This document shows positions 33,782 to 36,225 of a DNA stretch of 64,000 nt, piece after piece. Position numbers and translations under genes: made by a program. Below the pieces are notes generated by a model. That model ran no database searches. It was not told the origin of the DNA and saw only the letters and a list, made by a program, of their open reading frames with translations. Origin of the DNA: Promethearchaeota archaeon (GTDB lineage Archaea > Asgardarchaeota > Lokiarchaeia > Sigyniarchaeales > SOKP01); the NCBI GenBank assembly GCA_019058445.1, contig JAHPZA010000006.1, positions 320,001-384,000 on the forward strand, written 5' to 3'. Within the stretch, counting starts at the first letter, position 1. Each line of letters starts with the position of its first letter.

Positions 33782-34449
33782 TAATTTCTCCTTATATAAA
33801 TTAAATTTACATAATTATCTCTTTTGTAAACTTTGAGTAATTTAAATTTTCTCCCCTGCTCCATTTTATTAAAACCCTCCCCTTCTACTAAACTAGTAGC
33901 ATCTCTCCCACCTATAATCCATGGTGCAATAGTTATTCTCATCTCGTCTATTAAATCTTGTTTGATAAAACTCCAATTTAAATTGCCCCCACCTTCTAAT
34001 AAAATTGATTTTATTCCCATGTTTGATAGTATTAATAAAAGATTTAATAAATCTACTCTCTTTCCGGTCCCTGATTTTATTATTTTCACGTTTTTAGATT
34101 CGAATTCTCTAATTCTGTCCATAGTCACGCTTTCTGTCGTACCTATTATCGTAGGATAAATTTGTGGTTGATAAGTAATTACGTTTGAATCTAGTGGAAT
34201 TGTTAAAGTGCTATCAACAACAACTCTGTAATATCCTTTATGCTTAAAATATTTAATATGCAACTTTGGATTGTCTTTTAAGATTGTCCCCTTACCCACC
34301 ATAATCGCATCGACAGTTGTACGCAATTTATGAACATCTTTCCAATCTTTCTCATCAGATAATTCAGGATCTCCTGTTCTTGAAGCAATTTTTCCATCAA
34401 TAGTCATTGCGGCACTTAAAATAACATAAGGTTTTAGAATTTTCATCAA
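33781..34449 (-). CDS. ribD: 2,5-diamino-6-ribosylamino-4(3H)-pyrimidinone 5'-phosphate reductase (archaeal RibD-C/ArfC)
   Basis: PYVILSAAMTIDGKIA, DAIMVG.GT...DNP.L, LLEGGG, DE..ITIAP.IIGG. Confidence 0.92.
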   Translation of the reverse strand: MMKILKPYVILSAAMTIDGKIASRTGDPELSDEKDWKDVHKLRTTVDAIMVGKGTILKDNPKLHIKYFKHKGYYRVVVDSTLTIPLDSNVITYQPQIYPTIIGTTESVTMDRIREFESKNVKIIKSGTGKRVDLLNLLLILSNMGIKSILLEGGGNLNWSFIKQDLIDEMRITIAPWIIGGRDATSLVEGEGFNKMEQGRKFKLLKVYKRDNYVNLIYIRRN

Positions 34450-34534
34450 ATATGTTCTCAGTTGATATTAGATATTCTTTATCTTTTTATTTCAAAAAGA
34501 ATATAAATATAAAAATATAATACATTTAAGTTAA

Positions 34535-36049
34535 TTAAGTAAAGGAAACCAAAGATAATAATTTCACGTTCCTAAACTTGTAATTAAATTTAGGCAAATT
34601 AATTACTTTATTATTAGAAAAACGTTCAAATTCTTTAATTATAAAATCCTGCATTTGCTCATAATCAATATTATATGGTACAGTAATCAAGAGAATTCCA
34701 TTTTTTTTACATAAATTCATTTTTGTATAATCAGATAATTGTTGCTTAAAAAATTCATGATAATCCTTATGAAAAAAATTTGGAAATTTATAGTGCTGTA
34801 TTCCATTAAACTCAAAAGCTAATTTATAATTAATATTACTAATTCTAACTTCAGTATATCCATCTAAATGCATTTTCCCGTTATAATTCGGGATTATTTT
34901 AGAAATAGAAGTTTTAGGGAATGGTTCATTAAAAATTTGTTTAAAAAACCAACGGCATATTTCTTCACTTTTTCCATCTGAGCAATATGGACACCAATGA
35001 TCTCTTAAGATGCTATTATATGTAGTACTCCAAGATTTATGGCCTTTAATTCCACATTTCCAAATTAGTTTAATTTTACTTGGACTAATAGTTTTAACTA
35101 AACTTTGAAATTCATGTTTTTTAGTTAAAAGAATACCTGGTATACCGTTTTCTTGTAAACCTCGGTTTTTTGCAATTTTTTGAATATCTTCATAAGTCAT
35201 AGGTCTATTTTTAGCACAATCTGGACACCAACTGCCTTGCTGAATGTTAGAATAAGAGGCACTCCAGGGTTTATGCTTTTTAATTCCGCATTTCCATGTT
35301 AATATAATTTTACTCGGGCTTTGATTTTTAATCAATTTTTCAAATTCGTTATGAGTAGTTATTAGTTTCCCTCCTTTTTGAGCAGCAAGGTTTTCAAAAT
35401 TTTCATAGGTTTTAGGTAAGTAATTACCTGCACAATGGGGGCACCATGTACCACGTTTGATATTATAATAAGGAGCTCTCCAAGAATTATGTTCTTTAAT
35501 CTTACATTTCCATATTAATTTGGCTTTACTAGGTCTAATTTCTTTAATTAATTTCATAAATTGATTTTTAGTAGTTAGTAATTTACCTTCTCTTTCTTCA
35601 GCTAATTTTTGACATTTCTCATAAGTTATTCTAGAAGTGCTTTCATATGGAATTCTACCAAGTTTTTCCTTCAAATTATCTGGTAAAAATCTTTTAAACT
35701 TTCCTGGAGTTAGCATTTTGAAACTAGTTTTCGATAAACCAAATTTCTCTAAATCCTCTCCTAATGAATTCCAAATAAATTTTGCTGAAAGTTTTTTATT
35801 ATTAATTTTATCTATATTTGATGACAGTAAAGCATAATAAACTAAAATAATAGAAAATATACCATTTTTTTTAGATTCTGTAAAATCTAATCGTTTCAAT
35901 TTCTTTATATCTTTTGAATAAGAATATAAATCATAAGCTTTTTGATATATCTCAACTTTGAGATTTTGGGAAATTGATAGATGTGAAATTATTGTTTTAA
36001 TTTTTTTTTTTAATATACGGTTGTAGTTCTCATCAAAAACTATACTCAT
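34535..36049 (-). CDS. Zn-ribbon repeat PD-(D/E)xK endonuclease; putative homing endonuclease
   Basis: Three WKCxxxxHxxW...WCPxC repeats; SEE.CR..F, HLDGY, AFEFNGIQHY, LITVPY. Confidence 0.78.
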   Translation of the reverse strand: MSIVFDENYNRILKKKIKTIISHLSISQNLKVEIYQKAYDLYSYSKDIKKLKRLDFTESKKNGIFSIILVYYALLSSNIDKINNKKLSAKFIWNSLGEDLEKFGLSKTSFKMLTPGKFKRFLPDNLKEKLGRIPYESTSRITYEKCQKLAEEREGKLLTTKNQFMKLIKEIRPSKAKLIWKCKIKEHNSWRAPYYNIKRGTWCPHCAGNYLPKTYENFENLAAQKGGKLITTHNEFEKLIKNQSPSKIILTWKCGIKKHKPWSASYSNIQQGSWCPDCAKNRPMTYEDIQKIAKNRGLQENGIPGILLTKKHEFQSLVKTISPSKIKLIWKCGIKGHKSWSTTYNSILRDHWCPYCSDGKSEEICRWFFKQIFNEPFPKTSISKIIPNYNGKMHLDGYTEVRISNINYKLAFEFNGIQHYKFPNFFHKDYHEFFKQQLSDYTKMNLCKKNGILLITVPYNIDYEQMQDFIIKEFERFSNNKVINLPKFNYKFRNVKLLSLVSFT

Positions 36050-36129
36050 TATAAGTTCATTTATTTAATTTGGCTTTAAACTAAATAATTACATTTTCCA
36101 TATTTAAGCAAAAAGAGTTTCAACAAATT

Positions 36130-36225
36130 CTATAATTTTAGAAAATTTTCCATTCTTGAGGCAATTTTACCAACTATGGTCATTGCAGCACTTAAAATTA
36201 TGTAAGGATTTTTAATTTCTTTCAA
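36130..36225 (-). pseudogene. ribD: 5' remnant of ribD (31 aa)
   Basis: TTG-KEIKNPYIILSAAMTIVGKIASRMENFLKL* versus the intact MMKILKPYVILSAAMTIDGKIASRTG; start overlaps the amidohydrolase stop. Confidence 0.88.

Follow-up and report, generated by a model that had tools for sequence, protein, structure and literature searches.

The stretch studied here (the window) is 64,000 nucleotides (nt) long and covers positions 320,001 to 384,000 of contig JAHPZA010000006.1 from a Promethearchaeota archaeon (Asgard, Lokiarchaeia; assembly GCA_019058445.1). The genome, G000 below, amounts to 4.6 Mb and is a metagenome-type assembly of 10 contigs with 4.3% estimated contamination. At the 5' end of its ribD gene we found a putative inserted element with a length, equal to the period of two direct repeats, of 1776 nt. 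The gene order on the minus strand is an amidohydrolase, a 31-codon remnant of a ribD 5' end, a nuclease open reading frame (ORF) of 504 amino acids (aa), an intact archaeal ribD, cofG, and cofH (Table 1). A preliminary description, made from the sequence alone, had placed an endonuclease ORF between the intact ribD and the remnant; we recovered it at the same position, on the minus strand. The 222-aa gene belongs to the riboflavin/F420 pathway and encodes an archaeal RibD/ArfC reductase (2,5-diamino-6-ribosylamino-4(3H)-pyrimidinone 5'-phosphate reductase); it passes the equivalog cut-off of TIGR01508.

The remnant reads (M)KEIKNPYIILSAAMTIVGKIASR, then MENFLKL and a stop. Its TTG sits inside the last codons of the amidohydrolase (TTTGAAAGAAATTAA), and the amidohydrolase stop overlaps the ancestral ribD start. 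The conserved TIDGK motif of the remnant carries a change of D to V. When the 24 ribD codons of the remnant were compared with those that now open the gene, 15 of the 72 nt differed, and six of the 15 were synonymous third-position changes, exactly the counts given before. The repeat exceeds chance (blastn E 7e-7, tblastx E 1.2e-7, within the 3.7-kb locus). The two ends lose their homology right after ...IASR, at 34377-34383 and 36153-36159, in agreement with the earlier remark that it fades just after a conserved motif. At 72 nt and 79% identity, the flanking repeats are not a short identical target-site duplication.

The absence of an intron, integrase, or transposase had also been claimed, and it held in our searches. 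The Rfam scan of 30000-44000 returned no intron and no other RNA family, and Pfam and NCBIfam searches revealed no integrase or transposase domains in the element or in the neighboring genes scanned.

Table 1. Features of the ribD locus in G000 (window coordinates)
Feature	Position	Strand	Remarks
Amidohydrolase (chlorohydrolase-like)	36212-37381	-	Pfam Amidohydro_1 6.5e-39; NF005552 1.5e-82; upstream member of ancestral operon
ribD remnant ORF (displaced native 5' end)	36130-36225	-	TTG 36223-36225, stop 36130-36132
ribD-homologous part of remnant	36153-36225	-	24 codons; then 7 unrelated codons and stop
Left end of putative element (junction, remnant-ORF tail, region upstream of nuclease gene)	36050-36152	-	ribD homology ends at 36153
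Nuclease gene, free-standing, 504 aa	34535-36049	-	PF14311 and Vsr-like C-terminal domain
Element-borne intergenic region, now upstream of ribD	34450-34534	-	No counterpart in relatives
Replacement (foreign-type) ribD 5' end, codons 1-24	34377-34449	-	In-frame fusion to rest of ribD
ribD body	33781-34376	-	TIGR01508; RibD_C 3.6e-50; first 60-90 nt also look non-native
Intact ribD, whole gene, 222 aa	33781-34449	-	TIGR01508 203.8 bits, cut-off 186.45
cofG, next operon gene, position unchanged	32657-33781	-	NF004884 2.3e-115; synteny in 27 relatives' loci
cofH	31549-32679	-	

Empty sites and the origin of the two ribD 5' ends

The amidohydrolase was located in 60 related genomes, and the best 29 loci were examined. 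Our results showed that ribD directly follows the amidohydrolase in 28 of these 29 loci, which are thus empty sites, and that cofG comes next in 27. The start of ribD overlaps the end of the amidohydrolase in many relatives, including G003, the closest one. The N-termini encoded by the relatives' ribD genes (LKEIKKPY..., LKEVKRPY...) match the remnant and not the present ribD start, and the remnant begins exactly at the position where ribD begins in the relatives. It had been proposed earlier that the TTG overlapping the amidohydrolase stop marks the ancestral position, and that empty alleles might exist between the amidohydrolase and cofG; both proposals agree with these loci. The comparison clearly indicates that the insertion at ribD is the derived state.

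The sole exception was G009 (L011, 2659-3418), in which a 760-nt AT-rich non-coding spacer separates the amidohydrolase from ribD, and ribD has a new upstream region. Neither a remnant of ribD nor a relic of the nuclease could be recognized in the spacer, which may be an element that has decayed completely. No second ribD 5' fragment was present in any other relative examined. The G003 amidohydrolase (L032, 1501-2666) lies in two overlapping pieces with an internal TAA, and is probably a pseudogene or the product of a sequencing error.

To establish which of the two ends is native, a 57-nt block (codons 6-24) was compared with 30 relatives. The remnant shares 48 of 57 nt with G003, in line with the 78-84% found over the rest of the gene. 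The present ribD 5' end shares 41 of 57 with G003, the joint lowest value of the 30, and 53 of 57 with G021. Sliding windows of 60 nt gave the same picture. Of the 17 windows after nt 160, 16 had G003 as the best match of the 30; in the first five windows of the gene its rank was 30th, 17th, 13th, 9th, and 3rd. The non-native tract of ribD therefore reaches approximately nt 130-160, that is, 60-90 nt past the repeat. Such a tract fits co-conversion during the repair of a break; the tracts are short, and the support they lend is moderate. As far as such alignments can tell, the remnant is native and the present 5' end is foreign. The predicted incongruence between the 5' end of ribD and the rest of the gene was thus found.

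These comparisons bear on a transposition-like insertion, in which the 72-nt repeat would be a target-site duplication, identical at birth, and the remnant copy would since have decayed. A single-gene insert between direct repeats is what such an event would leave, and the D to V change in the remnant is damaging. Decay of the remnant, however, predicts the opposite of what we found, as it is the functional copy that departs from G003. The non-native tract is also longer than the repeat, and no transposase or integrase was found. We regard this explanation as very improbable, and the earlier view of two alleles rather than a fresh duplication is the one that the data favor.

The nuclease and its relatives

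The nuclease is built of an N-terminal region of ~140 aa of unknown fold, three treble-clef Zn-ribbon modules of the DUF4379 type, and a C-terminal Vsr-like domain. PF14311 (DUF4379) matches in two stretches with 48.1 bits (cut-off 24.5), and 18 of 27 homolog fragments match it too. The nuclease motif is HLDGY...LAFEFNGIQH...D..K, and residues D113, E130, Q135, H136, D157, and K160 are invariant in an alignment of the 27 homologs. Three PHROG families annotated as endonuclease or homing endonuclease (559, 681, 9084) match the protein. The catalytic domain (C-terminal 150 aa) matched no Pfam and no NCBIfam model, a word-based homolog search with the nuclease domain returned three proteins only, and an ESM Atlas feature search with the N-terminal 145 aa returned nothing.

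An AlphaFold model from the 27-homolog alignment reached a predicted local distance difference test score (pLDDT) of 90.4. Foldseek gave no match in the PDB at E<=0.001. An exhaustive VIA-align search placed the catalytic domain of the homing endonuclease I-Bth0305I first (3r3p_B, Z 9.2, root-mean-square deviation 2.9, 96 of 98 residues aligned), tied with the RAP domain of FASTKD4 (Z 9.2) and followed by Vsr (1cw0, Z 9.0) and a DUF559-like structure (3hrl, Z 8.0). A profile search of PDB sequences found no match to 3r3p or Vsr at E<=10. The model points to a nuclease with a Vsr-like fold, plausibly active, which we do not assign to the EDxHD family.

Eukaryotic RAP-domain proteins (FASTKD4 and apicomplexan and ciliate mitoribosomal proteins) fit the nuclease domain no less closely than Vsr does, and for the Zn-ribbon module there are matches among the DUF4379 proteins of mitoribosomes in kinetoplastids (model me046838afdef; PDB entries 9gek, 9g6k, 6z1p, 6sga, 6yxx, and 7ane). 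Organellar RNA-binding proteins of eukaryotes therefore contain both types of module.

At E<=1e-3 a profile search matched 53,511 representative clusters, of which 3,655 remained at E<=1e-30; many of the weaker matches may reflect the Zn-ribbon module alone. The distribution is patchy. Matches were found in 36 of 81 genomes, with 1-12 per positive genome, and several have internal stops. In G000, paralogs lie at 11967-13490 of the window (minus strand), at C6:719.5k (L002), and at C6:391k (L006); their sizes are 507 aa, 473 aa, and a weak match in a 764-aa open frame. For the copies at 11967-13490 and L002, the 1.5 kb on either side showed no duplicated gene end.

For each homolog locus that was fetched, the two flanks were compared with each other by tblastx, and ~28 loci were evaluable. 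In eight of them the nuclease ORF was bracketed by direct repeats of coding type. Four host genes are involved: ribD and a VWA gene (the latter in four genomes) at their 5' ends, and a RadA-like gene and a Zn-alcohol dehydrogenase gene at their 3' ends. Homologous nucleases flanked by gene-end duplications, as had been anticipated, do exist. As a control, 600 random G000 ORFs of 300-600 aa were screened at the same threshold; 27 (4.5%) were positive, mostly because of long paralogous neighbors, and short cases of the gene-end type made up ~1%.

The ribD site itself is occupied in a second genus. In G086 (genus g11) the order is amidohydrolase, remnant (..KPYIILSAAMTIDGKI; ...SDKPYIILSAAMTIDGKI), nuclease, intact ribD, and cofG. 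The same structure occurs in a 58.6-kb Joint Genome Institute (JGI) metagenome contig (L082), which is 91% identical to G086. The site is thus polymorphic for the presence of the element, occupied in G000, G086, and L082 and empty in the 28 relatives. The nuclease of G086 is 64-65% identical to that of G000. The conserved remnant motif has no amino-acid change in G086 and one (D to V) in G000, and so both remnants look young. Young remnants together with nucleases that are only 64-65% identical argue for repeated invasion and not for one ancient insertion. The G086 nuclease (L038, 1498-2583) is without the N-terminal ~140 aa (35630-36049 of the window), and has 300 nt of non-coding DNA in its place.

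The element-borne region upstream of ribD is presumed to hold the new promoter of the gene. In it, AGAATATCTAATATCAA matches AGAAGATCTAATATAAT of the G086 element, ~25-40 nt before the start. A scan for bacterial-type promoters and terminators gave 12, versus 13.8 in shuffles, with a model ill-suited to archaea. The left end of the element and its counterpart in G086 (...TATAGAATT...) show a weak similarity that is no more than suggestive. In a search for positions that might confer resistance, none was exclusive to the two replacement ribD ends, that is, common to both yet absent from all empty alleles. G086 was uninformative as a reference for incongruence, because the sample holds no close relative of it.

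The recurrence of this structure also bears on the quality of the assembly. Two strain variants of the ribD 5' region might have been joined around an unrelated nuclease contig, and the metagenome-type assembly in 10 contigs, with its estimated contamination, would allow for such a chimera. The same architecture, however, was obtained independently in G086 and in the JGI contig, with analogous ones in seven other assemblies, and the G000 remnant lies at the exact ancestral start position. A chimera is hardly credible here.

At the second 5' site, the order in G019, G069, G102, and G108 is the remnant of a VWA/CoxE-like 5' end, a nuclease read from the opposite strand, and the intact VWA gene. 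MoxR immediately precedes the remnant in G019, G102, and G108; G069 is the exception. In G069 (L041, L107), MoxR is on another contig, where it is interrupted by TAG and followed by a different nuclease copy, a layout that suggests rearrangement between copies of the nuclease.

The closest relative of G019 is G088 (MoxR 95% identical), in which MoxR and VWA are adjacent with no nuclease, and the two genomes form an occupied and empty pair. The G019 remnant matches the native 5' end of G088 at 69 of 72 nt, the G019 replacement end at 54 of 72, and the gene bodies agree at 277 of 300. When G019 was compared with G102 and G108, the replacement ends agreed at 65-66 of 72 nt and the gene bodies at 231-232 of 300. 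Among the elements, the 57 nt upstream of the replacement start agreed at 48-49 positions. The nuclease at this sister site brings along both an upstream region and a recoded gene end, and the host end is left stranded. This can be seen directly against the empty allele, and it is what the preliminary description had supposed for the ribD element.

Relative to the empty allele, 15 of the 18 differences in the VWA replacement end are synonymous (p about 4e-6). They include a change of Ser AGT to TCA, and several lie at the junction; ~12 nt are co-converted. Between the VWA remnant and the replacement copy, 15 of 17 differences are synonymous, which fits two functional alleles and not the decay that a transposition-like origin would entail. 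Recoding thus appears clear at the VWA site and only mild in ribD.

Two further sites are 3' ends. In G021 the RadA-like gene ends on one side of the nuclease, and a displaced copy of its 3' end lies on the other. In G006 a frameshifted nuclease separates the 3' end of the Zn-alcohol dehydrogenase gene from a displaced copy of 42 aa. In a maximum-likelihood tree of nuclease domains, the ribD-site nucleases of the two genera formed a clade (99/92), and the VWA-site nucleases another (100/100).

Duplicated gene ends were also observed in G000 around genes that do not encode nucleases. The 3' end (38360-38440) of mptA (GTP cyclohydrolase MptA, 37496-38440, plus strand) is repeated ~4 kb downstream at 42370-42468 (...FKIESCESIHHHDVYAELSTTIGELKKKLKLI and stop). 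Between the copies are two opposite-strand sulfatase genes (38667-41825) and no nuclease. The attached mptA end resembles G003, and the displaced copy resembles other relatives. The mptA loci of the relatives have no nuclease, sulfatase, or phosphatase within 1.5 kb downstream. Two more cases surfaced in the 600-ORF control screen. At L078 (G000:C6:438673-442899), an AlkZ-like DNA glycosylase gene (PF06224, 1.2e-43) lies between duplicated 3' ends, that of the gene (...EITAINQCEIIYTLPSFFKQLNL and stop) and the displaced copy (...EVTAKNQCEIIYTLPSFFKQLNL and stop), at 1134-1217 and 2866-2949 of the locus. At L075 (G000:C6:1189701-1194188), a gene for a B12-binding radical SAM protein separates another gene's 5' end (..NMIKISLSDVLIEKFGDKL..) from its displaced remnant (..NMIKISLSNVLIEKFREKL..), at about 1194-1352 and 3269-3388 of the locus.

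Proposed gene-end replacement by homing and its alternatives

We consider it likely that the insertion at ribD is a homing-type nuclease element that replaces a gene end. It would consist of 1776 bp, made up of the gene of a site-specific nuclease, a short promoter-bearing spacer, and replacements for the first 24 codons of ribD. In the proposed mechanism, the nuclease would cut empty ribD alleles near codon 24, in the conserved stretch that codes for SAAMTIDGKIASR. Repair would then proceed from an occupied allele, with the amidohydrolase and remnant as the left arm and the ribD body as the right arm. The nuclease gene and the replacement 5' end would be copied in, and the recipient's own 24 codons would be stranded behind the amidohydrolase, which is the structure seen today. 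Some of the flanking ribD sequence would be co-converted, as the gradient to ~nt 130-160 suggests. The function of ribD would be kept through the start codon, upstream region, and synonymous-variant 5' end supplied by the element. The occupied allele would escape further cutting, the remnant being without the right half-site and the new copy being a sequence variant. Cleavage, target specificity, and the resistance of the recoded allele are what we infer from this arrangement.

Several points weigh against such an interpretation. The incongruence of the 5' end concerns a short tract, and the 41 of 57 matches, set against an expected 80%, give by themselves p=0.09. The synonymous changes had been read as a sign that both ribD ends evolved as coding sequence; at ribD alone this signal is modest, since the excess amounts to 6 of 15 overall (p=0.28) and 6 of 10 in codons 6-24 (p=0.047). 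Only two ribD substitutions fall within ~15 nt of the junction, and resistance by recoding is not evident here; the variant positions are scattered over ~45 nt upstream of it. Of the nuclease homologs, ~20 of 28 have no flanking duplication within 1.5 kb. The nucleases of G000 and G086 are about as divergent as the host genes, so that a long vertical residence with losses is conceivable. Finally, the signature of duplicated ends also surrounds non-nuclease genes in G000, and therefore does not require this nuclease in cis.

This last point lends real support to the main rival explanation, in which the nuclease is a passenger. A generic, integrase-free recombination route by which lokiarchaeial genomes acquire genes would duplicate gene ends, for example through homology-facilitated illegitimate recombination anchored in one gene, or when a small circle bearing part of a gene end integrates by a single crossover, and the nuclease would be one cargo among many and not the driver. 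The three other G000 insertions (the sulfatases at mptA, the AlkZ-like gene at L078, and the B12-radical SAM gene at L075) have the same signature with no nuclease. A generic route does not, however, predict that the same ribD junction should be occupied in two genera by sister nucleases, nor that a clade of VWA elements should keep the junction, the promoter region, and the recoded end across gene bodies that are 77% identical. The signature is enriched at nuclease loci (8 of ~28, versus ~1% for short cases in the control), and a simple single-crossover circle would not give a foreign ribD tract beyond the end of the repeat. We hold the passenger explanation to be unlikely.

An old vertical insertion was considered as well. 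The element would have entered once, in an ancestor of genera g1 and g11, would persist in a few lineages, now immobile, and would have been lost elsewhere by recombination between the 72-nt direct repeats. The identity of the two nucleases resembles that of host genes (ribD ~63-79% in nt; amidohydrolase 59% with G019, which is of the same genus as G086), direct repeats would permit a precise deletion that restores a seemingly empty site, and the G086 nuclease lacks the N-terminal 140 aa. Yet a dead remnant kept since the split of the genera should be unrecognizable, and the motif has changed at no position in G086 and at one in G000. The remnant tracks the local lineage and the functional end does not, which is the opposite of what evolution in place would produce. 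The occupied VWA genome and its 92-95% identical relative, moreover, differ by the element only. Vertical inheritance of this kind is quite improbable, and homing with replacement of the gene end is the explanation retained below.

Known systems and significance

The closest analogues are the mobile ORFs (mORFs) of fungal mitochondria, in which a LAGLIDADG or GIY-YIG ORF has entered a gene near its 3' end and brought a foreign C-terminal segment with it; the native C-terminus now lies displaced, farther downstream (PMC3630166). Such "hybrid genes" are found in atp6 of Allomyces macrogynus, in atp6, atp9, cox2, and nad3 of Glomus, in atp9 of Rhizopus, and in cox2 of Mortierella (PMC3630166, citing Paquin et al., 1994). 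In both systems an endonuclease ORF lies near a gene end and the host gene is joined in frame to a foreign end. The native end, now displaced, clusters with the relatives of the host, and the inserted end does not. The fungal remnant lies beyond the ORF and is unexpressed, and occupied and empty alleles occur among relatives, as at ribD. Unlike the fungal systems, the ribD element resides in an archaeal chromosome and encodes a Zn-ribbon and Vsr-like nuclease. The mORFs occupy 3' ends and are often in frame with the gene, whereas the ribD ORF is separate and the 5' end has been replaced along with the upstream region; relatives of the ribD-site nuclease also occur at 3' ends, as mORFs do. We therefore treat the mORF as an analogue in mechanism, and not the ribD element as a member of that group.

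A resemblance to the intronless homing of phages had been proposed in the preliminary description. In T4-like phages this is carried out by free-standing seg and mob genes such as mobE (PMC2790892). The free-standing nuclease with no intron or intein, a probable double-strand-break repair with co-conversion, and a donor protected by polymorphism are common to both, and in these respects the comparison stands. It is less apt in that seg and mob genes occupy intergenic positions with no gene end duplicated beside them, for which the fungal mORFs are closer. The phage enzymes, moreover, are of the GIY-YIG or HNH type, and their transfer takes place between co-infecting phage genomes and not between cellular chromosomes.

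The nuclease shares with I-Bth0305I and Vsr the catalytic fold and, in its build, a nuclease core with separate DNA-binding modules. Sequence similarity to I-Bth0305I or Vsr was not detected in the profile search, and, judged from the aligned sequences, the motif reads D...E-[FYWA]-[NQD]-G-x-Q-H...D..K and not EDxHD. I-Bth0305I is intron-encoded in a phage. The DNA-binding part of the present nuclease consists of repeated DUF4379 treble-clef Zn ribbons.

A similar displacement of gene ends is known from polymorphic toxin loci (CDI/Rhs). Their orphan toxin tips arise when a new gene end with an accompanying gene recombines at a conserved sequence and the old end is pushed downstream. This process diversifies toxin and immunity functions at 3' ends, with no nuclease-driven homing. 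Unlike these loci, the targets of the present nuclease family are housekeeping genes.

Two papers on Asgard mobile elements mention homing-type endonucleases in other contexts only (PMC8813620, PMC11529989), and among the listed matches in the literature naming DUF4379 no title concerned archaeal mobile elements. New here are the location in an archaeal chromosome, the nuclease family, the replacement of a 5' end along with a presumed promoter, and the fact that a single family occupies 5' as well as 3' gene ends.

A wider proposal can be put forward tentatively. Lokiarchaeial chromosomes may host a large, undescribed family of Zn-ribbon and Vsr-like homing endonucleases that invade gene ends and carry recoded ends and promoters. 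If this break-and-copy process also worked in trans, or by way of elements that have since decayed, it might explain the duplicated ends around non-nuclease genes too and would then amount to a general, integrase-free way of gaining genes. If the duplicated ends around cargo genes do share this process, it bears on how Asgard genomes acquire genes.

For the ribD element itself, a rare strategy, in which homing inside a gene without intron or intein is paid for by a spare gene end, would be extended from fungal mitochondria to an Asgard chromosome and to 5' ends. A very large protein family gains a likely role, and its modular Zn-ribbon recognition could make these enzymes useful as nucleases specific for long sites. 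Short foreign ends and stranded remnants can also mislead gene calling and single-gene trees in these genomes.

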